Below are positions 7,092 through 53,763 of a stretch of DNA of 64,000 nt, piece by piece (the stretch's first letter is position 1; every line of letters starts with the position of its first letter). This stretch comes from Chloroherpeton thalassium (GTDB lineage: Bacteria > Bacteroidota > Ignavibacteria > Kapaibacteriales > UBA2268). A program made the translations under genes and the position numbers. A model generated the notes under the pieces. It saw only the letters and a program-made list of their open reading frames with translations, was not told where the DNA came from and did no database searches. The stretch covers positions 49,152 to 113,151 of the forward strand of contig DYLM01000001.1 in the NCBI GenBank assembly GCA_020722095.1, in the 5' to 3' direction.

Positions 7092-9476
7092 TTATTTTTC
7101 TAATATTGAATTGTCAAATTCTGTTTTACATTCTGGACATTTAATAAATTTATCCCATTCACCTTCGGAATTTTTCCTAAAATGATATTCCAAATATGGA
7201 TTATTGCAATTCGGACAAGCGTGATTAATTGGTTCATAATTAGTTAAGTAATCACATTTTGGATAATTTGAGCAAGACCAAAACTTCTTTTTTGTTTTGG
7301 GGGAATATCTTTCAACTAAATGACCTTCATTACATTTTGGACATTTGACATTTGAAGTAAGTGGCAAAATTCCCTTACAATTTGGATAATCAACGCAACC
7401 CAAGAATTTACCATATCTACCTTCTCGTAAATACATTGGTTTTCCGCAAATAGGACAAACTGCACCTGGATAAATTTCTGGTTGCTTTTTCTCTTTTTCC
7501 TCATTGTTTTTTGGAAGAGGTTTGGTGAATTTGCAAGTTGGATAATTTGAACAACCTAAAAATCTACCTTTTCTGCTAACTTTGATTGTTAGCGTGCCAC
7601 CGCATTCTGGGCATATTGTTTCAGAATTTGTCGTAGGGTCGGTTTGGGCATCATTCAGAGTTTTCGAGAAAGGTTCATAGAACTCATTAACTGTTTGCAA
7701 ATAAGTTTTATCGCCTTCAGCAATTTCATCAAGTTCTTCTTCCATTTTGGAAGTGAAATTAACATTAAAAATTGAATCAAAACTTGCAACTAAAATATCA
7801 TTTACATCAAATCCAAGTTGAGTAGGACGGAATGATTTTTTCTCCAACTCCACATATTTACGGTCTGATAAAGTAGAAACAATCGTTGCATAAGTGCTTG
7901 GACGTCCAATTCCTAATTCATCTAAAATTTTAATTAAACTTGCTTGTGTAAATCGTGCAGGTGGTTTAGTTCCTGCTTGTTTAGAGGTTGCAGAAGTCAG
8001 TGAAAGTTTTTTGCCAACTTCAATTCCTTTTGGGAGAATAATTTCTTTGTCTTCATCGTCATTTGTTGCATTTTCGTCCTTTTCGTCTTCTGCTTCCGTA
8101 TAAATTTTCATATATCCATCAAATTTTACAACCGAACCAGTGGCTCTAAAAATAAATCCATTCGATGAAATCTCCACAACAGTCTGTTCTAAAATTGCAT
8201 TGCTCATTTGTGATGCAACAAATCTAAAATAAATCAACTGATAAAGTGCCATTTCGTCTTTTGTGAGCGACTTCTTCAATTCTTTTAAGTCATATTGAAC
8301 ATTTGTTGGACGAATTGCTTCGTGAGCATCTTGCATATTTTTTGATTTTGATTCATAAGTATTTGGTGTTTTTGGTAAATAGTTTTCACCATAATTGGTG
8401 GATACATATTCACGGACGCTTTTTATTGCATCATCACTTACTCTAACTGAATCGGTTCTCATATATGTAATCAAACCGACAAGTTCATCATTGCCAATAT
8501 TTACACCTTCGTATAATTTTTGAGCAATTTGCATTGTTTTCTTATTAGTAAATCCTAATTGTTTGGCTGCTTCTTGTTGCAATGTACTTGTTGTAAAAGG
8601 TGCATTAGGTCGGCGAACAACATCTTTGGTTTGTTTCTTTGTTATTTCGTATTCTTGAATTTGCTTAATTTGAGCAAGTAAGTTATCGGCTTGCTCTTTG
8701 TTTTTTATAAAATGTAATTTGGATATTTGATTCTTTATTTTTTTAGTTTCTTCAGGGGTATTTCCTTTGGCTGAACCACTTGGCTTTTGAATTAACTTAT
8801 TTTCAAATGCAACTAATAGTGTAGGCAATTTACTTATACTCGGACATTTAAAATCTGCAAAAATATTCCAATATTCAATAGATTCAAAACCTAAAATTTC
8901 TCGTTCCCGCTCGCAAATCAATCGTAATGCAACAGATTGCACTCGTCCTGCACTTAATGCTTCACTTGTTTTTCCTATCATTTTGTTTGACAAAAATGGA
9001 GAAACTTGGAAACCAATAATTCTATCCATCACTCGGCGGGCTTGTTGGCTCATAAATAAATTATGATCAATATCTCTTGCACTTGTAATACCTTTGTTAA
9101 TTCCACTTTTAGTTATCTCGTTAAAAATAACGCGTTTGATTTTATTATTTACTGGGGTAATTTCATCTGCTAAATGGTATGCAATGGCTTCACCTTCGCG
9201 GTCGGGGTCGGTAGCGATTAGCACATCTCCACTTTCTTTTGCAATATCCTTTAATTCTTTAATTACTTTTGCTTTACCTTTTATAACTTCATACTTTGGT
9301 TGGAAATTATTGTCTAAATCAATACCAAGGCTATAGTTCGGTAAGTCTTTAATATGTCCAATAGATGATTTGACAATATAATTATTGCCAAGATATTTAT
9401 TTATTGTTTTTGCTTTTGCAGGCGATTCTACTACTACCAATGTTTTTAATTGGCTTTTGGCTGATGATTTGCTCAT
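7092..9476 (-). CDS. topA: DNA topoisomerase I
   Basis: 794 aa. Toprim N-terminus TLVVVESPAKAKTI, plus four C-terminal C4 zinc ribbons (CPECGG...C..YP.C repeated). Confidence 0.9.
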   Translation of the reverse strand: MSKSSAKSQLKTLVVVESPAKAKTINKYLGNNYIVKSSIGHIKDLPNYSLGIDLDNNFQPKYEVIKGKAKVIKELKDIAKESGDVLIATDPDREGEAIAYHLADEITPVNNKIKRVIFNEITKSGINKGITSARDIDHNLFMSQQARRVMDRIIGFQVSPFLSNKMIGKTSEALSAGRVQSVALRLICEREREILGFESIEYWNIFADFKCPSISKLPTLLVAFENKLIQKPSGSAKGNTPEETKKIKNQISKLHFIKNKEQADNLLAQIKQIQEYEITKKQTKDVVRRPNAPFTTSTLQQEAAKQLGFTNKKTMQIAQKLYEGVNIGNDELVGLITYMRTDSVRVSDDAIKSVREYVSTNYGENYLPKTPNTYESKSKNMQDAHEAIRPTNVQYDLKELKKSLTKDEMALYQLIYFRFVASQMSNAILEQTVVEISSNGFIFRATGSVVKFDGYMKIYTEAEDEKDENATNDDEDKEIILPKGIEVGKKLSLTSATSKQAGTKPPARFTQASLIKILDELGIGRPSTYATIVSTLSDRKYVELEKKSFRPTQLGFDVNDILVASFDSIFNVNFTSKMEEELDEIAEGDKTYLQTVNEFYEPFSKTLNDAQTDPTTNSETICPECGGTLTIKVSRKGRFLGCSNYPTCKFTKPLPKNNEEKEKKQPEIYPGAVCPICGKPMYLREGRYGKFLGCVDYPNCKGILPLTSNVKCPKCNEGHLVERYSPKTKKKFWSCSNYPKCDYLTNYEPINHACPNCNNPYLEYHFRKNSEGEWDKFIKCPECKTEFDNSILEK

Positions 9477-11031: not shown

Positions 11032-11147
11032 TATTGAAACAAATAATAATGCAAATTATCTCAAATTTCAAAAATTGAATTGTATTTTTGATAACTTTTA
11101 CTTTTCCACATATTTTGCACACAAAAATTCACAAGCAATCAAGTATA

Positions 11148-11433
11148 GAGGCTGTCTCATAAGTAAGATTTTACAAAACAATTTCCATCAATCAAGATAT
11201 TGCTTGAGGGTATTACATAACATCGAAAAACCTTATCCTCATTATTAACCTTAGTAGAAATAATTCCCATTTTTACACACCAAACCTTATAACCTTATTA
11301 AATTATTAAAATTAGGAAATAAGGTTATTGGTTTAGTTTGGTTCATTTCTTTCTACTAAGGTTAATAATGAGGATAAGGTTTTAAAATGTTTTTTTTAAT
11401 AATTTGCAAAAAATCAACTTACGAGACAGCCTC
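11148..11433. mobile_element. MITE-like element copy 1 (286 bp). Terminal inverted repeats GAGGCTGTCTCATAAGT / ACTTACGAGACAGCCTC. Contains two inverted copies of a CTACTAAGGTTAATAATGAGGATAAGGTTT module.
   Basis: Termini seen directly in the sequence. Internal 32-bp inverted repeat at 11229-11262 versus 11354-11386. Shares the AAATAAGGTTATTGGTTTAGTTTGGTTCATT module with the copies at 16445-16500 and 53546-53600. Confidence 0.7.
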
Positions 11434-11459
11434 TCTTGAATGGAGTTATTTTACACCTT

Positions 11460-16178: not shown

Positions 16179-16187
16179 TTTTATATT

Positions 16188-16562
16188 GAAGCTGTCTCAT
16201 AAGTCAGCTTTGCAGTCATTCCAACGAAAGTGGGAATCCAATGTTTATTTGAAAATTTGAGAATGGTTTAACAATAGCCCACGAATTCATTCGTGGGTAA
16301 ATTTTAAAGTAAACCTTCGGAAGGTTAAAAAGAATTTTTTATGCGCAGAGCAAGCTCTTCCACTACAGATTTTACCTAACACCTAACGCCCAACACACCC
16401 AAAATCAATATACCTTATAACCTTATTTAACTGGTAAATTACGAAATAAGGTTATTGGTTTAATTTGGTTCATTTTTTTCTACTAAGGTTATTAGGTTCA
16501 ATAAGGTTTTAAAATGTTTTTATTTAATATTTTCCAAAAAGTCAACTTTTGATACAGCCTCC
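16188..16562. mobile_element. MITE-like element copy 2 (375 bp) with degenerate terminal inverted repeats (GAAGCTGTCTCATAAGTC / GTCAACTTTTGATACAGCCTCC)
   Basis: Internal GUCAUUCCAACGAAAGUGGGAAUCC GNRA hairpin; 20-bp palindrome CCCACGAATTCATTCGTGGG; AACCTTCGGAAGGTT palindrome; AAATAAGGTTATTGGTTTAATTTGGTTCATT module. Confidence 0.6.
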
Positions 16563-20390: not shown

Positions 20391-23300
20391 ATGAAAACAA
20401 ATTTTCTTGAAATATTCAAACAAACTGACGAAATCTTCCGCTCTTATGATTATACTTTTGATGAAAAAGTTAGGAAAACTCAAAATATTTTTCATAGCTA
20501 CTTTACGTTTATAAAAAGTGTACGTATTATTTTAGACCAAAAAAGCTACGAAACCGATAATTTTTCTGAAACAAGAGATAAAGTGATTAAAACAGCTATT
20601 ATTTCTAATGTTGTATTAGGTATTATCGAAGTTTTCTATGATTCTAATTACAGTATGGATTTTAATAAAGAGGAATTCGAATTCTTTTTTGGACTATTTG
20701 TGGATAAAATTGCCAATTTTGTTTTTATAAATAAATTAGAAAAAACACTTAGAGATATTGAGCAAGAAAAGCGAAATTTAGAAATAAATCATAGAACAAA
20801 ATATGCAATAGTTCTTGATTTACTAAGAAACACTGATAGAAATCTTTACACTATCATTACTCGTAAAATGCTGAATTTCCTATTAATTAAAGGTATTCCC
20901 GAATCAAATTTATATTTTGAAAAACTCGGCACTCGCCTTGATGAAATGACCGATGTAACAAGCGAAATCAATCGTCCATCTAAGAAGCAAGTGCTTGAAC
21001 AAATTTTCTATTTATCTAATGATATTTTCAAATTAGCAGAAAAATACTTGAACGAAGACTTTATTGTCACCCAAATTCATCGTTGGGTAAATGATGAAAA
21101 TGCTAAGCATGTTACCAAAACTCTAAACGATCCCAATACTTCACTCTTCGATATTGGCGAGGCAATTCGTAGATTTTATAAGATGAACCCGGTAGATTCT
21201 AAAGATTCATCTGCTCAATCAATTGGAATGGTTGTATCATTGGTAAGAAGGTTTTTCTCGGAACAATTAGAATTTATTGATATTGCAAAAAATATTTTTA
21301 CAATCAAAGATTTTTATGAATTATTGCCGAGCATAATTTTTGCTTCAGAAAGTTATGGCACAATTGGTGGCAAAGGTTCCGGGATATTATTAGCAGCAAA
21401 AATTATTGAGAAAGAGAAAGAAAATCATCCAATTCTCAAGTCAATAAAAATTCCACGAACTTGGTTCATTCCTTCTGATGGGGAAAATAATTTTATTTAT
21501 TATAATAATTTGGAAGATGTTATTGAACAAAAATATCGCTCATTAGATGAAATTCGCAAAGAATATCCTTACACAATGCAGGTTTTTAAGAATTCACAGT
21601 TTCCAGATGAAGTTATTAACGGATTATCAAGAGTATTAGATGAAATTGGGGATAATCCAATCGTTATTAGAAGTTCCAGTTTATTAGAAGATAGAATGGG
21701 CACTGCATTTGCTGGTAAGTACAAAAGCCTCTTTGTGGCAAACCAAGGCACAAAACAAGAAAAATTAGATGCAATTTTAGATGCAGTAGCAGAAGTCTAC
21801 GCTTCCGTCTTCTCGCCTGATCCAATTAGTTACCGAAAGGAGAAAGGATTTCTTGATTTTAACGAAGGAATGGGAATAATTATTCAAGAAGTTGTTGGAG
21901 TGCGAGCGGGCGATTATTATTTCCCTGCTTTTGCTGGCGTGGGTTTCTCTAACAATGAATTTCGTTGGAGTCCTCGTATTAAACGCGAAGATGGACTTTT
22001 GCGATTAGTTCCGGGATTAGGCACGCGAGCGGTAGATAGAATTGGCAATGACTTCCCAATTTTGATTGCACCTGGTCAGATGAATTTAAGAATTAATCAA
22101 AATTTAAAAGATGCCATTACTTACTCTCCAAGATATATTGATGTTATTAATTTAAAAACAAATACGTTTGAAACTATTTCAATTAAAGATTTGATTAAAA
22201 ATGCTGGTAATCAATTCCCTCTTTTAAATGAAATATTTTCAATAATTGAAGATCACAATATAAAATCTCCAATTGGTCTGGGAATTGACACTAAAAAAGA
22301 CGAAATTATCGTTACATTCAACAATTTAATTACTCGTACTCCATATATTAAGCAATTAAAAGAACTTCTCGAAGTGCTAAAAGAGAATTTTGGACTTCCT
22401 GTTGATATTGAATTTGCTTGCGATGGCAAGAATTTATATCTTCTGCAATGTCGCCAGCAAAGTGCATTTGACTCTGAATTTACTGCATCAGTTATTCCAG
22501 AGAATATTCATAGAGAAAGAACTATTTTTAAAGCACAAAAACATATATCAAACGGAAAAATTCCTGATATTGCTTACATAGTTTATGTTGATCCTGATAA
22601 TTATACAAATGCAAAATCTATCCAAGAATTGGAAGAAACAGCCCGAGCAGTCGGGAGACTCAATCAAACTTTACCCAAACGCAGCTTCATATTAATTGGT
22701 CCAGGAAGATGGGGCACTCGTGATGATATTAGATTGGGAGTGAAAATCTCTTACTCAGATATTAATAATACTGCAATGTTAGTTGAAGTTGCAAAATCCA
22801 AAGGTTCATACACACCTGAATTATCCTTTGGAACTCACTTTTTCCAAGACTTGGTGGAAAGCCAGATTTACTATTTGCCACTTTATCCAGATAAAGAGGA
22901 GACAATGTTCAATTATGAATTTTTCAATAATGCAAATAATACTTTAGAAAGATTTGTTCCTGAATATTCACATATTTCGCACATCTTAAAAGTTATTAAT
23001 GTTCGTGAAGAAGCTAATGGAAGTATTCTAAGAATATTGGCAAATTCAGAGGAAGAAAAAGCAATAGCATTTTTAAGTAAAATTGATGGGAAAATTGAAA
23101 CAGTTGATTCAGATATTTCCAAACCTAATGTTTCGGAAGCTCAAAGCTGGAGATTGAGAATGGCAGAGGCTTTCGCAAATTCCATTGATATTGAAAAATA
23201 TCAAATCAAAGGAATTTACTTGGCTGGTTCAGTGTTTAAATCTCAAGCACGGCCAGATTCCGACATTGACATTTTTGTACATATTAATGATGAATCTCCT

Positions 23301-23492
23301 TTTAGAAAAGAGTTTATTGATTGGTGCAATGGTTGGAACTCTGCATTAGTTAATATTAATTTTAATCGTTCTGGATATAAAATGGAAAAAATATTAGATG
23401 TTTCTGTTTTTGATGATGAGGAATTAAATCAAAATCAATTCTATCAAGATATAATCAATCCAACAAAATATAAATCCAAGAAATTAAGATAA
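20391..23492 (+). CDS. multidomain protein: unknown N-terminal ~300 aa, then a PEP-synthase/pyruvate-phosphate-dikinase-type ATP-binding domain (PPDK_N-like), then a C-terminal minimal nucleotidyltransferase
   Basis: 1033 aa. GTIGGKGSGILLAAKI (cf. GGKGANLAEM); PIVIRSSSLLEDRMGTAFAGKYKS (cf. VAVRSSATAEDLPxASFAGQ); VDIEFACDGKNLYLLQCRQ (end of PPDK_N); C-terminal GIYLAGSVFKSQARPDSDIDIFVHI (GS...DxD pol-beta-type nucleotidyltransferase). No TSH phospho-His swivel and no PEP-utilizer barrel. Confidence 0.6.
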   Translation: MKTNFLEIFKQTDEIFRSYDYTFDEKVRKTQNIFHSYFTFIKSVRIILDQKSYETDNFSETRDKVIKTAIISNVVLGIIEVFYDSNYSMDFNKEEFEFFFGLFVDKIANFVFINKLEKTLRDIEQEKRNLEINHRTKYAIVLDLLRNTDRNLYTIITRKMLNFLLIKGIPESNLYFEKLGTRLDEMTDVTSEINRPSKKQVLEQIFYLSNDIFKLAEKYLNEDFIVTQIHRWVNDENAKHVTKTLNDPNTSLFDIGEAIRRFYKMNPVDSKDSSAQSIGMVVSLVRRFFSEQLEFIDIAKNIFTIKDFYELLPSIIFASESYGTIGGKGSGILLAAKIIEKEKENHPILKSIKIPRTWFIPSDGENNFIYYNNLEDVIEQKYRSLDEIRKEYPYTMQVFKNSQFPDEVINGLSRVLDEIGDNPIVIRSSSLLEDRMGTAFAGKYKSLFVANQGTKQEKLDAILDAVAEVYASVFSPDPISYRKEKGFLDFNEGMGIIIQEVVGVRAGDYYFPAFAGVGFSNNEFRWSPRIKREDGLLRLVPGLGTRAVDRIGNDFPILIAPGQMNLRINQNLKDAITYSPRYIDVINLKTNTFETISIKDLIKNAGNQFPLLNEIFSIIEDHNIKSPIGLGIDTKKDEIIVTFNNLITRTPYIKQLKELLEVLKENFGLPVDIEFACDGKNLYLLQCRQQSAFDSEFTASVIPENIHRERTIFKAQKHISNGKIPDIAYIVYVDPDNYTNAKSIQELEETARAVGRLNQTLPKRSFILIGPGRWGTRDDIRLGVKISYSDINNTAMLVEVAKSKGSYTPELSFGTHFFQDLVESQIYYLPLYPDKEETMFNYEFFNNANNTLERFVPEYSHISHILKVINVREEANGSILRILANSEEEKAIAFLSKIDGKIETVDSDISKPNVSEAQSWRLRMAEAFANSIDIEKYQIKGIYLAGSVFKSQARPDSDIDIFVHINDESPFRKEFIDWCNGWNSALVNINFNRSGYKMEKILDVSVFDDEELNQNQFYQDIINPTKYKSKKLR

Positions 23493-23536
23493 TAATAAGT
23501 ATTGGAACTTTGGTAAATATTCCCATTCTCGTAGGA

Positions 23537-23788
23537 GGTTGTCTCATAAGTCCCAGATATTTCAAAATTGTCATTCCCGTGAAAACGGTAATTTATATCC
23601 TCCCCCTTAATCCCCCTCAAAGAGGGGGAATACAAGGGGGAGGTTCTTATAAAAATATTCAAATTTGTAGTGAGGTTATATCATAAGTCAATTAAATGCA
23701 ACTTATAACATTAAGAATAAGGAATTACGGAGAATTCAAAAGAACTTAGTAGAGCATACATCCTTGTTTGCTAACTTATGAGACAACC
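23537..23788. mobile_element. MITE-like element, left copy of an inverted pair (252 bp; terminal inverted repeats GGTTGTCTCATAAGT / ACTTATGAGACAACC)
   Basis: Perfect 15-bp termini. Internal GUCAUUCCCGUGAAAACGG hairpin remnant and the nested GC hairpin CCTCCCCCTTAATCCCCCTCAAAGAGGGGGAATACAAGGGGGAGG (23599-23643). About 95% identical to the reverse complement of 24911-25160. Confidence 0.75.
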
Positions 23789-23827
23789 TGTTATTTAATT
23801 CTCATTATTTTAGCACAGATAAAGTTC

Positions 23828-23854
23828 ATCTCAAAGATGAGATCTTTTTTTTTT
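23828..23854 (+). terminator. candidate rho-independent terminator (ATCTCA-AAGA-TGAGAT followed by T10)
   Basis: 6-bp stem followed by a 10-T run, downstream of the 1033-aa gene and the left MITE. Confidence 0.4.
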
Positions 23855-23915
23855 ATAAACCTTTTTTTTGATAATTATAATAAAGAATTATTATTCCAGA
23901 TGTGGCACATCTAAA

Positions 23916-23946
23916 TTGACAAAAATATATGTTAAGCCTCTATAAT
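23916..23946 (+). promoter_or_regulatory. sigma70-like TTGACA-N19-TATAAT, immediately preceded by the 15-bp palindrome AGATGTGGCACATCT (23898-23912)
   Basis: Seen in sequence only. It would drive transcription antisense to the cyclophilin gene. In an AT-rich genome this could be chance. Confidence 0.2.
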
Positions 23947-24039
23947 ATAACATTATAGCTCATAAATACGGCGGAAAGGCTCTGTGAAATGTATTTTTTA
24001 CTCTTGTCATCGTATTTTTATCTTCAAACACATTTTTAC

Positions 24040-24067
24040 AAAAAAAAATCCCCGCTTTCGTCGGGGA
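24040..24067 (-). terminator. rho-independent terminator of the cyclophilin gene
   Basis: GC stem TCCCCG/CGGGGA with a 7-nt loop, followed on the minus strand by a 9-U run. Lies about 130 bp downstream of the stop at 24200. Confidence 0.55.
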
Positions 24068-24199
24068 TTAATAATGTATGATTCAATAATAAAAAAACCT
24101 TCCTAATGGTTCAGGAAAAATTCAACACTATGCTTAAGCATAGGGTTGATGGGAGAAACTAAACTTTCGGAAGGTTGTAATATTTTTTTTAAATTAATT

Positions 24200-24814
24200 T
24201 TACTTTAATTTAACTATCTTCATTTCGATTTTTTCTAATGGATTATCGCGTGCATCTCGTGGTGAATTAACGATTTTATCAACAACTTCCATTCCTGAAT
24301 TAACTTGACCAAATATAGAATATTGTCCATCAAGCCATTTGGCATCAGCAACACAGATAAAGAATTGTGATGATGCCGAGTTTGGATCTTGGGAACGGGC
24401 TGCTGAGATAATTCCTCTTTTATGCTCTAATTTGCTAAATTCAGCAGGAACGCGCTTTTGGTCGGGTCTTCCCATTCCCCATTTGTCTTTGGGTTCTGAC
24501 TTGGAATTAGGATCGCCACCTTGAATCATAAAGTTAGGAATAACTCTATGGAATGCCGTACCATCATAAAACTTGATAGCAACTAAACTATCAAAATTTG
24601 CTACATGTTTTGGAGCAACATCGGGAAACAATTCAATTTGAATTTTTCCAAGTTCATTTGCACCTTGAGTACAAGTAATTTCATATTTTGGATTATTGGT
24701 CACTTTTTTAGCCTCATTTTTTTTAGGGTCGCTAAAGCCATTAGTTGTAATCATAATAAATATGGCAATAAACACTGCTACAATAGCAACTGGTGTGATA
24801 ATTTTTTTATTCAT
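24200..24814 (-). CDS. ppiB: membrane-anchored cyclophilin-type peptidyl-prolyl cis-trans isomerase
   Basis: 204 aa. N-terminal transmembrane/signal segment; FHRVIPNFMIQGGD cyclophilin signature. Confidence 0.85.
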   Translation of the reverse strand: MNKKIITPVAIVAVFIAIFIMITTNGFSDPKKNEAKKVTNNPKYEITCTQGANELGKIQIELFPDVAPKHVANFDSLVAIKFYDGTAFHRVIPNFMIQGGDPNSKSEPKDKWGMGRPDQKRVPAEFSKLEHKRGIISAARSQDPNSASSQFFICVADAKWLDGQYSIFGQVNSGMEVVDKIVNSPRDARDNPLEKIEMKIVKLK

Positions 24815-24910
24815 AATTTTCCTTTTTTTTGTATTAAGTCGTTTTCTACTAAAATTTATTGAAAAGAAAGTGATTTATTATTAAAAAGGTCATAAATCTA
24901 CTCTTCCTCA

Positions 24911-25160
24911 TTTGTCTCATAAGTTAGCAAACAAGGATGTATGCTCTACTAAGTTCTTTTGAATTCTCCGTAATTCCTTATTCTTAATGTTATAAGTTGC
25001 ATTTAATTGACTTATGATATAACCTCACTACAAATTTGAATATTTTTATAAGAACCTCCCCCTTTATATTTCCCTCTTTGAGGGGGATTAAGGGGGAGGA
25101 TATAAATTACCGTTTTCACAGGTATGACAATTTTGAAATATCTGGGACTTATGAGACAAC
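24911..25160. mobile_element. MITE-like element, right copy of the inverted pair (reverse complement of 23537-23788, ~95% identity)
   Basis: Direct comparison of the two copies finds only two short mismatch patches (GTCATACCTGTG vs GTCATTCCCGTG; AGAGGGAAATATAAAGGGGG vs AGAGGGGGAATACAAGGGGG). Confidence 0.75.
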
Positions 25161-25261
25161 CTCTTTTGTCTCAGAACTTTCCTAAGGTTTCAAACCTTCG
25201 GAAGGTTAAAATTCCTCCCAACGTCCAACACCTTCATAACATTATCAAATTATCTAATTTT

Positions 25262-26299
25262 CTATTTGATTTCCCAAGAATCAATTCCTCTCATCAATTT
25301 CTCAACATCGCCTTCGCCAAGTGTAGCTACTGTATCTTCGATTTGTTTGTTGACTAATTCATCGTAAGCAGGCTTATTAACATCAAGGAACACACCAAAA
25401 GGTCTTGGCAAATCATTATCATACGACATCGAGGAAATCATTTGAGCAAGTGCTAAGTTCTTCTCGTTATGGATAATCAATTTATCTTTATTTTCATCGT
25501 TTAATTCTACTTCGGTTGGAGCAAAATTATCAATCAAAATACCTTTTTCTTTGTTCTTACCAAATACAAGTGGCTTGCCATCTTCAATGAAGACTGCATT
25601 TTCATCCATATAATGCTTATCGGTCCATTTATCAAATACGCCATCAGTGAAAATCACACAATTTGAGTAAATTTCAATATAAGCAATACCTTTATGCTCG
25701 GCTGCTCTTTTCATCACATAAGCTAAGTGCTTAGGATTGCTGTAAGTAGTGCGTGCTACAAAAGTTGCACCACTACCTAAAGCCAAAGCAACAGGATTGA
25801 ACGGATAATCAATCACGCCAAAAGGCGAAGATTTAGTTTTTGCACCAACTTGTGATGTAGGAGAATACTGTCCTTTAGTCATTGAGTAGATTTGATTATT
25901 CAACATCAAAATCTTCAAATCCATATTTCTACGGATAGCGTGAATAAAGTGATTACCACCAATTGCCATTGCATCGCCATCACCAGTAATAACCCAAACG
26001 GACAAATCAGGATTAGCAATTTTGATACCCGAAGCCACTGGCAATGCTCTACCGTGCAATGTGTGGAATCCATAAGTATTCATATAATATGGGAAACGGC
26101 TCGAGCAACCGATACCCGATACAACACAGAATTTCTCGCGTGGAATGCCAAGAGTAGGCATTAATTTCTGCAATTGAGCCAAAACTGAATAGTCTCCACA
26201 TCCAGCACACCAACGAACATCAATTGGAGTTTTAAAATCTTTTGCAGTCAATTCAACTGTAGGAATTTTATTTATATTTGAATTATCTATCATTGTCAT
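25262..26299 (-). CDS. korB: 2-oxoglutarate/2-oxoacid:ferredoxin oxidoreductase beta subunit (TPP-binding)
   Basis: 345 aa. CAGCGDYSV ... GDGD TPP motif. Confidence 0.85.
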   Translation of the reverse strand: MTMIDNSNINKIPTVELTAKDFKTPIDVRWCAGCGDYSVLAQLQKLMPTLGIPREKFCVVSGIGCSSRFPYYMNTYGFHTLHGRALPVASGIKIANPDLSVWVITGDGDAMAIGGNHFIHAIRRNMDLKILMLNNQIYSMTKGQYSPTSQVGAKTKSSPFGVIDYPFNPVALALGSGATFVARTTYSNPKHLAYVMKRAAEHKGIAYIEIYSNCVIFTDGVFDKWTDKHYMDENAVFIEDGKPLVFGKNKEKGILIDNFAPTEVELNDENKDKLIIHNEKNLALAQMISSMSYDNDLPRPFGVFLDVNKPAYDELVNKQIEDTVATLGEGDVEKLMRGIDSWEIK

Positions 26300-37448: not shown

Positions 37449-37525
37449 CGAAGCGTAGCGCAGCCCGGTAGCGCATCTGGTTTGGGACCAGAGGGCCGGA
37501 GGTTCGAATCCTCTCGCTTCGACCA
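37449..37525 (+). tRNA. tRNA-Pro (anticodon UGG)
   Basis: Manual fold: acceptor CGAAGCG/CGCUUCG; D arm GCGC-AGCCCGGUA-GCGC; anticodon arm UCUGG-UUUGGGA-CCAGA; T arm GGAGG-UUCGAAU-CCUCU; discriminator A plus an encoded CCA. Confidence 0.85.
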
Positions 37526-38868: not shown

Positions 38869-39007
38869 TAAGTCGAAGTTTTTCTTGTAATACTAAAAAA
38901 ACAAGAATTTTTTATCAATCAACTTTTTTCTAATTTATTGTTAAGTGCTCTCCTGCCAAAAGTTGAATAAAAAAAGTGATATTGTTTACTTCAGTTATTC
39001 GAATAAG

Positions 39008-39136
39008 AGGCTGTCTCATAAGTCAGTTTTTCTGTCATTCCCACGAAAGTGGGAATCTATAAATCCGCTCTGGCAGTGGATCCCCGTTTGCACGGGAATG
39101 ACACTTGTGAAATATTTTGGACTTATGAGACAGCCT
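39008..39136. mobile_element. minimal MITE-like element (129 bp) with perfect 17-bp terminal inverted repeats AGGCTGTCTCATAAGTC
   Basis: Two internal GNRA hairpins in opposite orientation: GUCAUUCCCACGAAAGUGGGAAUC and GAUCCCCGUUUGCACGGGAAUGAC. Confidence 0.75.
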
Positions 39137-39331
39137 CTTAGTTTATTCAGGTAATTAAAAATAAGTTCGTCAGTAATATTTATCACTCAACACTCAACAC
39201 CCAAATAATGTTCAGATTAAACTATAAATTTTAATTTGAATTATTTGCTATATTTTCCAACAATTCAAAATAGGTTTAGAAATATTAGTTAATTTTGTAA
39301 ATTATTTGTATTCCAAATTGGAAAGAGAATT

Positions 39332-53451: not shown

Positions 53452-53763
53452 TTGTCATTCCCGTGCAAACGGGAATCCAGTGAAGCAAGATGAGGCTCTC
53501 TCATAAGCTAATTTTTTAAACATTTTAAAACCTTATTTAACCTACCAACCTTAGTAGAAAGCAATGAACCAAACCAAACCAATAACCTTATTTCCTAATT
53601 TTTTTAATTAAATATGTTAATAAGGTTTTGTGTGTAAAAATTGAAATTATTTCTACTAAGGTTAATAATGAAAATAAGGTTTTTCGATGTTATGTAATTC
53701 CCACAAACCATATCTTGATTGATGGAAATTGTTTTGTAAAAGCTGACTTATGAGACAGTCTCT
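53452..53763. mobile_element. MITE-like element copy (about 310 bp)
   Basis: GUCAUUCCCGUGCAAACGGGAAUCC GNRA hairpin at the left end. Termini GAGGCTCTCTCATAAG / GACTTATGAGACAGTCTC. Inverted internal CTACTAAGGTT...AATAAGGTTTT modules. Contains AAATAAGGTTATTGGTTTGGTTTGGTTCATTGC in reverse orientation. Confidence 0.65.

Follow-up and report, generated by a model that had tools for sequence, protein, structure and literature searches.

Inverted short repeats flanking a cyclophilin gene are probably IS1182-type MITEs

The inverted repeat on either side of a cyclophilin-type PPIase gene in the 64-kb stretch of DNA analysed here (the window) is real but ordinary. In the explanation that we consider likely, its two arms, copies A and B, are MITEs, i.e., non-autonomous and non-coding derivatives of IS1182-family insertion sequences, and they recently occupied the two sites in an orientation that is incidental. 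A function of the pair as a gene-flipping switch is not supported.

Structure of the repeat and its family in the window

Copies A and B are reverse complements over 252 nt (arms 23535-23786 and 24912-25163) with 97% identity and 1125 nt between them, in agreement with the inverted pair of approximately 250 bp described in a first-pass annotation of this DNA. The two short patches of difference described there were also found, as the alignment places all eight mismatches in two clusters within the outer 137 nt, while identity is 100% over the inner 115 nt, and a perfectly matching inner stretch spans 153 nt. Both copies have intact outer ends (in copy B, the korB side), which are inverted relative to each other and identical for 40 nt or more. 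Copy A (256 nt, 23535-23790, plus strand) starts 43 nt past the stop codon of a gene for a 1033-aa protein and extends from the left end GAGGTTGTCTCATAAGT (23535-23551) to the right end ACTTATGAGACAACCT (23774-23789), with a perfect terminal inverted repeat (TIR) of 16 nt, AGGTTGTCTCATAAGT. Copy B (252 nt, 24912-25163, minus strand) is located 99 nt past the korB stop codon, and its inner, PPIase-side end reads ATTTGTCTCATAAGT and is cut short at ...ACTTATGAGACAA, with the final 3-5 terminal bases absent or altered. The perfect 15-bp TIRs previously ascribed to each copy are not confirmed for copy B.

Both copies contain an additional internal left end, GGTTATATCATAAGT (at 23674 and 25010), and the A/B unit is a composite, with a left end that occurs twice and a single right end, in which an outer 137-nt module is combined with a complete inner 115-nt MITE. 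In copy A, the outer module (23535-23671, plus strand) begins with the left end and approximately 57 nt that are homologous to another family member, E5 (89%; 85-89% for the A/B unit), followed by a GC-rich compound hairpin (23599-23643, plus strand; CCTCCCCCTT..CCCCCTC AAA GAGGGGG..AAGGGGGAGG, then TTCTTAT). The inner module (23672-23790, plus strand; 115-119 nt) has its own left end, GAGGTTATATCATAAGT, and shares its right end with copy A. The predicted folds are stable for copy A as a whole (-84.3 kcal/mol, z = -7.5) and for its GC-rich hairpin (-35.4 kcal/mol, z = -4.7), which is terminator-like for transcription arriving from the 1033-aa gene. The corresponding values are -66.9 kcal/mol (z = -5.2) for copy B and -27.0 kcal/mol (z = -3.2) for its hairpin (25055-25099, minus strand), in which the second mismatch cluster weakens the stem. 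Adjoining the outer end of copy B is a stretch of debris (25164-25207, minus strand) with a degenerate right-end-like sequence, AAGTTCTGAGACAAAA, and a small palindromic module, AACCTTCCGAAGGTT. This palindrome could be read as a duplicated PPIase terminator beside korB, left behind by a past inversion; that reading was ruled out because AACCTTCCGAAGGTT is a dispersed module found again at 24162 and within the family member E2 (at 16312).

Independent assemblies rule out an assembly artefact: each copy carries the variant patches that distinguish it and adjoins its expected neighbour, copy A the flank of the 1033-aa gene in GCA_975418485.1, and copy B the korB flank both there and in a JGI metagenome. 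Neither copy encodes a protein, as the overlapping mechanical ORFs of 58-77 aa gave no significant Pfam match. A search of Rfam at gathering thresholds identified only a tRNA (37449-37522), and with E-values up to 1 the region 23300-25400 yielded sub-threshold chance matches alone. Further copies of the A/B subtype were sought in metagenomes, using the outer end and the inner-module junction as queries, and no match was obtained, the collection evidently being without the short contigs of this organism, and a literature search with the terminus sequence returned only unrelated eukaryotic primer matches.

The window contains at least six family members of 133-376 nt that have the common terminus GAGG(C/T)TGTCTCATAAGT; 16 terminus matches (1.64 expected by chance) were grouped into six elements. 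Besides A and B, these are E1 (288 nt, 11147-11434), which lies 26 nt past a stop codon, E2 (376 nt, 16187-16562), 9 nt past a stop codon, E5 (133 nt, 39006-39138), which represents the basic type, and E6 (273 nt, 53491-53763), which is 89% identical to E1 in inverted orientation. All six are located 9-273 nt downstream of a stop codon.

Affiliation with IS1182 and mode of insertion

The earlier assignment of the copies to MITEs agrees with their size (within 50-500 bp) and TIRs, the lack of a transposase, their multiple copies, and the termini that they share with autonomous IS1182 elements. Full-length elements with the same termini include L079 (1.8 kb, with a 514-aa transposase), L103, ISMsp1, and ISBf3, and the transposases of autonomous elements with these ends scored 436 and 468 bits against the NCBIfam model NF033551, “IS1182 family transposase” (cut-off 270 bits; domains DUF772, DDE_Tnp_1, and DDE_Tnp_1_6). 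No IS1182 transposase gene was found within the 64-kb window by tblastn. In a scan of species-representative genomes, 64 of the 117 terminus-bearing loci had the form of a short inverted pair (64-422 nt), and the carriers belong to the Bacteroidota, Ignavibacteriota, Chlorobiota, Chloroflexota, Acidobacteriota, and others. ISMsp1 (Microscilla pSD15) and ISBf3 (Bacteroides fragilis pBFY46) are autonomous IS1182-family elements of Bacteroidota. The TIRs of ISMsp1 (GAGGCTGTCTCAAAAGG and GAGGCCGTCTCAAAAGT) and the sequence at both ends of ISBf3 (GAGGTTGTGTCAAAACG) match the window consensus, although elements of this type are 1.7-1.85 kb long with a transposase of 510-550 aa, whereas those in the window (133-376 nt) encode nothing.

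The terminus includes CTGTCTC, which occurs in the end of Tn5 as well. A relationship with IS4/Tn5 suggested by this common motif was dropped because the autonomous partners belong to the IS1182 family. Correia elements, RUP, BOX, and ERIC are small structured intergenic repeats with hairpins that can affect transcript ends, and repeats of the Correia and REP types usually have a defined target duplication (e.g., TA for Correia elements). The window elements resemble these groups, by general description and not by sequence comparison, in being small, highly structured, intergenic, and hairpin-bearing, but the groups differ in their termini, in having other or no known transposase partners, and in their usually defined target duplications. 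The IS1182-derived MITEs of Methanosarcina acetivorans, whose partner is ISMac2, are 160-169 bp long, and their direct repeats measure 0 or 4 bp (PMC3852290). As described, they are likewise short and non-autonomous, with IS1182-type inverted repeats and the same pattern of direct repeats; they belong to a different domain of life, whereas the family represented in the window is found in many bacterial phyla and is modular and composite.

No consistent target-site duplication was found among 61 elements, of which three have 4-bp direct repeats (0.48 expected) and none has 8-bp direct repeats. Palindromic flanks of at least 6 nt were observed for 8 of the 61 (0.33 expected; maximum of three in 1000 shuffles), and in three cases (L023, L084, and L013) a split hairpin is accompanied by a 4-bp loop duplication. 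Since the remaining 53 copies have no flank palindrome, the support for hairpin targeting comes from the statistics of the whole set and not from each copy; the preference known from IS1182 elements is seen across the family and not for A or B individually. The IS1182-family element IS1272 of staphylococci produces no target-site duplication, replaces inverted-repeat structures 3' of genes, and generates tandem left-end duplications (PMC5678879). The missing duplication is accordingly known behaviour of the IS1272 type, which helps to narrow down the family without speaking against a MITE. The window family is further similar to IS1272 in its sites immediately 3' of genes, in its inverted-repeat or hairpin targets, and in its extra left-end copies: IS1272L has a tandem left inverted repeat, a left end occurs twice in the A/B unit, and tandem ends are present in L034, L113, and L136. 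Unlike the elements here, IS1272 is autonomous, and for the window family the stem-loop-replacing mode is suggested by statistics and one lost hairpin, GGGCAGAGCTTGCTCTGCCC, a GC hairpin that two relatives have 3' of the 1033-aa gene and that the window lacks. The end sequence of the window family was not found in L139, a staphylococcal IS1182-family copy.

Taken together as the probable course of events, an IS1182-type DDE transposase acting in trans would recognise the 17-nt terminus. By analogy with IS1272, the element would insert at, or replace, hairpins just 3' of genes, usually without target duplication, and this may also be how copies A and B came to their sites. The composite unit would have reached, very recently, two terminator-proximal intergenic sites flanking the PPIase gene, one 3' of the gene for the 1033-aa, PPDK-like protein and the other within the formerly tight korB-PPIase junction. 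The inverted orientation of the copies would be incidental, and the PPIase gene would never have left its ancestral orientation. Two observations do not fit easily: the truncated inner end of copy B is not expected from clean transposition, and L125, which has no copy B, also has no counterpart of approximately 40 nt of adjacent flank and so provides no clean empty site. On the other side, L134 and L135 stop 83 nt past the 1033-aa gene and give no clean empty-site comparison there.

Gene order and alternative explanations

The PPIase gene (24200-24814, minus strand; 204 aa) is located downstream of korAB and encodes a cyclophilin domain (PF00160, E = 4.6e-51) with an N-terminal hydrophobic segment, which bears out its previous description as membrane-anchored. 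The terminator assigned to it also holds, in the form of an intrinsic-terminator-like hairpin with a T-run 3' of the gene (24047-24069, minus strand). The genes within approximately 10 kb encode DnaB, an M1 peptidase, MutL, an RRM protein, a histidine kinase, GDH, the PPDK-like protein, the PPIase, KorAB, DnaE, LpxB, and LpxK.

Gene order was compared with the relatives L123, L124, L125-L128, L130, and L131. In all of these, korA, korB, and the PPIase gene are co-directional, with the PPIase gene directly 3' of korAB, and the orientation in the window is therefore the ancestral one. The spacers corresponding to the korB-PPIase junction are 12-73 nt in element-free relatives. Whether or not an element is present, the 50 nt that precede the PPIase start codon are conserved, and these together with approximately 40-110 nt downstream of the gene can be aligned with the relatives. 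The neighbouring genes downstream differ in every relative. A relative with 83-88% identity, represented by two loci from the same sample (L131 and L136), carries a member of another subfamily at both sites or close to them. In L131, an E5-type element (93% identical to E5 of the window) lies at this position between korB and the PPIase gene, and its flank towards the PPIase gene is also the same; in L136, an E5-type element and a solo left end lie 3' of the 1033-aa gene.

The near-identity of A and B is accounted for by either recent re-occupation of the sites or gene conversion, and the first-pass annotation had fairly read the 97% identity with two clustered differences in the same terms. 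The presence of another subfamily member at both sites, or close to them, in L131 and L136 makes it possible that older residents were converted or remodelled in situ. Under such concerted evolution, which we judge unlikely, both sites would have carried older family members for a long time, as in this relative, and the 97% identity would result from conversion between copies only 1.1 kb apart in inverted orientation. The homology of the first 57 nt to the E5 type is in line with this idea, and the differences between A and B are clustered twice and not scattered, a pattern that patchy conversion or templated mutation typically leaves. However, turning a 133-nt resident into the 252-nt composite needs two-sided homology, and all that could provide it is a stretch of approximately 57 nt at 85-89% together with a 17-nt end. 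In addition, copy A is not at the exact nucleotide position of the L136 element. Moreover, the two loci are non-adjacent in this relative, so conversion driven by proximity could have acted only once a rearrangement had taken place in the window lineage alone. We favour transposition as the source of the near-identity.

The first-pass annotation had proposed that the pair serves as a substrate for RecA-dependent inversion, by which the 1.1-kb cassette would expose the PPIase gene to read-through either from korBA or from the 1033-aa gene. The repeat is long enough for RecA-dependent recombination (252 nt at 97%, with the 153-nt perfect stretch), and the varying neighbours 3' of the PPIase gene indicate a rearrangement-prone region. 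Nevertheless, we regard such a switch as very improbable. The window shows the ancestral orientation, and the suggested search of related genomes for both orientations returned the co-directional arrangement in every case. No assembly contains the other orientation, but this counts for little, since contigs built from short reads end within the repeats. This applies to every contig with the exact PPIase, KorB, or 1033-aa protein, and the window alone spans the repeats. No recombinase gene is present within about 10 kb. An orientation-dependent promoter or coding junction, as in an inverton, was not seen; with the sigma-70 consensus alone scanned, the region has seven promoter-like matches, not above chance (10.0 +/- 3.1 in shuffled sequences). 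The TTGACA-N19-TATAAT motif (23916-23946) and the palindrome AGATGTGGCACATCT (23898-23912) reported earlier do exist, but the 19-nt spacing is non-canonical. Transcription arriving from either flank meets the strong GC hairpin of a copy, and the conserved upstream sequence suggests that the PPIase gene has its own promoter; from the conserved 50 nt and the stable hairpins, read-in from the flanks is not obviously what drives this gene. The first-pass annotation had itself set against its proposal the case of a pair that is two of hundreds of randomly oriented copies with no read evidence of inversion. The findings come close to this case, as the 64 kb contain at least six dispersed copies, A and B included, and all are located 3' of genes.

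The non-coding spacer between copy A and the 3' region of the PPIase gene (23791-24085), which contains the TTGACA-N19-TATAAT motif and the palindrome, has no counterpart in any of the relatives compared. A search for a small gene or sRNA in this spacer found only ORFs of at most 48 aa, and the one scanned (23768-23914, 48 aa) had no Pfam match.

It is extremely improbable that A, B, and the PPIase gene form a composite transposon, a 1.63-kb mobile unit with the PPIase gene as cargo: IS1272 forms such transposons (TnSha1 and TnSha2, as cited in PMC5678879) and both outer left ends are intact and inverted, but the idea was rejected as contradicted by the korAB synteny, since the PPIase gene has its ancestral position immediately 3' of korB and alignable flanks in relatives at 71-90% identity, and the exact PPIase protein was found at this locus only.

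Site succession and significance

A further possibility, which we consider doubtful and rather improbable, is that terminator-proximal sites are repeatedly re-occupied by newer family members through hairpin-replacing transposition. As a resident MITE is itself a large hairpin and the elements target hairpins, the resident would become a preferred target. If so, E5-type residents such as those at or close to both sites in the relative would have been replaced by one newer composite in the window lineage. The composite may also have captured a terminator-like hairpin of the host; the GC hairpin of copy A resembles the native hairpin 3' of the 1033-aa gene in the relative L134 at 20 of 25 positions. 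The composite would then act as a mobile terminator that stands in for the native ones of the 1033-aa gene and of korAB.

The direct importance of the locus is modest. A probable MITE splits the ancestral korAB-PPIase junction, the elements occupy former positions of native terminators, and the locus marks a break point of short-read assemblies; the pair reveals no new regulatory mechanism. At the level of the family, a widespread short repeat with GAGGCTGTCTCATAAGT ends, found in many phyla, is tied to IS1182 elements of the ISMsp1 and ISBf3 type, and the hairpin-associated, duplication-free insertion pattern of IS1272 is extended to elements that are likely non-autonomous. This connection aids the annotation of repeats in metagenome-assembled genomes of Bacteroidota, Ignavibacteriota, and Chlorobiota.

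Structure of the inverted pair

The segments at 23535-23786 (copy A, adjoining the gene for a 1033-aa PPDK-like protein) and 24912-25163 (copy B, adjoining korB) are reverse complements over 252 nt with 97% identity and are separated by 1125 nt. The eight mismatches form two clusters (CATTCCCGTG in A and CATACCTGTG in B; GAGGGGGAATACAAGG in A and GAGGGAAATATAAAGG in B), both located in hairpin arms within the outer 137 nt; A and B do not differ over the inner 115 nt. The near-identical inverted pair described in the first-pass annotation is therefore real, with its differences confined to two clusters. The perfect 15-bp terminal inverted repeat ascribed to each copy was found in A, at 16 nt (AGGTTGTCTCATAAGT), but not in B, where the PPIase-side end (...ACTTATGAGACAA) runs directly into ATGAGG and the terminal CCT(C) is lost.

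Besides its two ends, each copy contains a third end-like sequence, of left-end type (GAGGTTATATCATAAGT), in its interior at 137 nt from the outer end, and a degenerate extra end lies beside copy B. The unit is a composite in which a left end and approximately 57 nt similar to another element of the window (E5) are followed by a compound hairpin rich in GC (-35.4 kcal/mol in A and -27.0 in B) and, after this, by an entire 115-nt MITE that has a left end of its own and shares its right end with the unit. An assembly artefact is ruled out by separate contigs linking each copy, with its own variants, to its own flank: in the MAG GCA_975418485.1, one contig spans the 1033-aa gene and copy A with the variants of A and a second spans korB and copy B with the variants of B, and a JGI contig also joins korB to copy B with the variants of B.

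The MITE family and its IS1182-type ends

The terminus matches 16 sites in the window with up to three mismatches (1.64 expected), which group into six elements with the consensus end (A)GAGGCTGTCTCATAAGT: E1 (11147-11434, 288 nt), E2 (16187-16562, 376 nt), A (23535-23790, 256 nt), B (24912-25163, 252 nt), E5 (39006-39138, 133 nt), and E6 (53491-53763, 273 nt). One internal core is common to E1, E2, and E6; a different one links E5 with the outer portion of A/B. A stop codon is located 9-273 nt upstream of all six elements. A hairpin module, GTCATTCCCGTG(c)AAACGGGAAT, occurs inside or beside the MITEs at 23570-23592, 25106-25128, 39080-39102, and 53454-53476 (four matches, zero expected), the last being solo, just outside E6; in its ATTCCC-N8-GGGAAT form it may be similar to the dRS3 repeat of Neisseria. 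The short palindrome AACCTTCCGAAGGTT occurs dispersed at 16312-16326 (in E2), 24162-24176 (downstream of the PPIase gene), and 25193-25207 (between korB and copy B), with seven strand-matches against 0.09 expected, and is part of the PPIase terminator region in the related locus L125.

A scan for GAGGYTGTCTCATAAGT across one genome per species (596 Gb) yielded at least 117 loci, where by our own estimate chance hits for a 17-mer would be on the order of 100. At 64 of the loci listed, the terminus is present in two inverted copies at a short distance of 64-422 nt, in Saprospiraceae, Chitinophagales, Cytophagales, Bacteroidales, Ignavibacteria, Kapabacteria, Chlorobi, Chloroflexota, Acidobacteriota, and a few Proteobacteria. 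The short elements bounded by GAGGCTGTCTCATAAGT among these matches have unrelated interiors and discrete size classes of ~105, 115, 135, and 154 nt (e.g., L017 2441-2597, L047 3926-4067, L061 270-400, and L084 7310-7470, on genome contigs of loci L006-L122). No description of a cross-phylum MITE superfamily with GAGGCTGTCTCATAAGT ends was found in the literature searched.

Two loci among the matches listed, L079 and L103, contain full-length elements. The L079 element (Belliella) is 1.8 kb long with the ends GAGGCTGTCTCAAAAAGT and GAGGCTGTCTCATAAGT and encodes a 514-aa transposase, to which the 532-aa transposase of L103 is 53-54% identical. Both have a DUF772 + DDE_Tnp_1 + DDE_Tnp_1_6 architecture, and NCBIfam NF033551 ("IS1182 family transposase", cut-off 270) gives them 436 and 468 bits. 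A plasmid search identified the same ends in ISMsp1 (GAGGCTGTCTCAAAAGG and GAGGCCGTCTCAAAAGT) and ISBf3 (GAGGTTGTGTCAAAACG at either end). On the basis of the ends common to these four elements, the window elements can be assigned to MITEs derived from IS1182-family insertion sequences, and the earlier MITE call was correct. There is no transposase homologue within the 64-kb window.

The cyclophilin gene and its locus in relatives

The enclosed gene (24200-24814, minus strand) encodes a cyclophilin (PF00160, E = 4.6e-51) that carries a hydrophobic anchor at its N terminus, and a terminator-like hairpin with a T-run is located at 24069-24047, as expected for the membrane-anchored PPIase with its own terminator that had been proposed. 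korA, korB, and the PPIase gene are co-directional in all relatives examined, which indicates that the orientation in the window is ancestral and that copy B lies within a former operon junction. The korB-PPIase spacer is 12-36 nt in L123 and L124 (71-74% PPIase protein identity), 73 nt and without an element in L125-L128 and L130 (~90% nucleotide identity), and 320 nt in L131 (88% nucleotide identity), where an E5-type element 93% identical to E5 occupies the position of copy B and has the same flank on the PPIase side. Conservation of the 50 nt preceding the PPIase start codon does not depend on whether an element is present, and the neighbour downstream of the gene differs in every relative. 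The closest assembled relative, GCA_020720105.1 (L125, L134, L054, L087, and L102; ~90% nucleotide identity), was submitted under the name "Chloroherpeton thalassium", a label that looks loose; the window has a G+C content of only 32%, and its best named protein hits are MAGs of Kapabacteria, Ignavibacteria, and Bacteroidota.

Homology of the PPIase downstream region to relatives stops at about 24161-24085, and the segment 23791-24085 has no counterpart in any sequence compared and no credible ORF. Alignment of 24085-24181 to L125 6638-6680 and L131 4026-4067 shows that an insertion of ~55-60 nt in the window interrupts what is, in L125, the hairpin region 3' of the PPIase gene; the insertion contains the palindrome TCAACCCTATGCTTAAGCATAGTGTTGA, which also directly follows the PPIase stop codon in L131. 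Just past copy A, at 23826-23855 (plus strand), an AT-rich 7-bp hairpin (TCATCTC AAA GATGAGA) precedes a T10 run; it folds no more stably than shuffled sequence (z = -0.23) and may originally have terminated the 1033-aa gene, from which the MITE now separates it. The 1033-aa protein itself (20391-23492, plus strand) is conserved and combines PPDK_N (PEP/pyruvate-binding) with a C-terminal nucleotidyltransferase domain; homologues of ~50% identity, some of ~1630 aa, occur widely across Kapabacteria, Ignavibacteria, and Bacteroidota.

Insertion mode and origin of the pair

IS1272, a member of the IS1182 family, generates no target duplication. It targets and replaces inverted-repeat structures, often immediately 3' of genes, and gives rise to left ends duplicated in tandem; alternative pathways have been proposed in which either the loop or the entire stem-loop becomes duplicated (PMC5678879). 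In Methanosarcina, IS1182-derived MITEs are listed with direct repeats of 0 or 4 bp (PMC3852290). The window-type elements resemble IS1272 in lacking a regular target duplication, in an excess of palindromic flanks, and in having extra ends. Among 61 short elements, flanking direct repeats of 4 bp occur in three (0.48 expected) and of 8 bp in none, and flank complementarity is far commoner than for randomly paired flanks, with complementary runs of at least 6 nt in 8 of 61 (0.33 expected; maximum of 3 in 1000 shuffles). The element interrupts a hairpin in L023, L084, and L013, with the 4-nt loop duplicated on either side, and extra ends, tandem or solo, are present in L034, L113, and L136. In L136, from the same sample as L131, an E5-type element lies downstream of the 1033-aa gene and is followed by a solo left end resembling the internal end of A/B; in this organism the PPIase and 1033-aa loci are not adjacent. 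The L136 element (8700-8880) is enclosed by 8-9-nt direct repeats (ATATATTC) and the solo end (GAGGTTGTTTCAGAAGTCAATTA) follows at once, an arrangement that could reflect duplication of flank plus left end in tandem, by analogy with IS1272L. We infer hairpin targeting at sites A and B as well; the one direct hint is that two relatives have, 3' of the 1033-aa gene, a GC hairpin (GGGCAGAGCTTGCTCTGCCC) that the window lacks.

The evidence best supports two recent arrivals of a composite MITE whose inverted arrangement is incidental: one IS1182-type unit would have inserted twice, at two terminator-proximal sites beside a housekeeping gene, and the copies differ by two clustered changes and the terminal truncation of B. 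Gene conversion between older residents could also yield near-identical copies but is rated lower than transposition, because a 133-nt resident offers only short, imperfect homology for its conversion into a 252-nt composite. Inversion across the 252-nt repeat is physically possible, yet nothing found points to its occurrence or to a regulatory role. The invertible cassette with promoter swapping that had been envisaged is opposed by the ancestral orientation, the lack of a recombinase gene within ~10 kb of the pair, and promoter matches at chance: the annotated TTGACA-N19-TATAAT (23916-23946) and adjacent palindrome (23898-23912) exist, but the region contains 7 sigma-70-like matches against 10.0 ± 3.1 in shuffles. 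The opposite orientation appears in no contig of the locus, which is weak evidence since all short-read contigs end inside the repeats, and metagenome scans gave no match to the subtype-specific A/B sequence. A composite transposon carrying the PPIase gene is contradicted by the korA-korB-PPIase synteny of relatives.

The pair is thus a real but ordinary feature, an IS1182-family MITE. Its GC hairpin may, weakly, derive from a host hairpin, since 20 of 25 positions match a hairpin in L134 (a score reached by 0 of 500 shuffles). More speculatively, hairpin-targeting elements may preferentially replace resident MITEs, leading to a "succession" at fixed sites.
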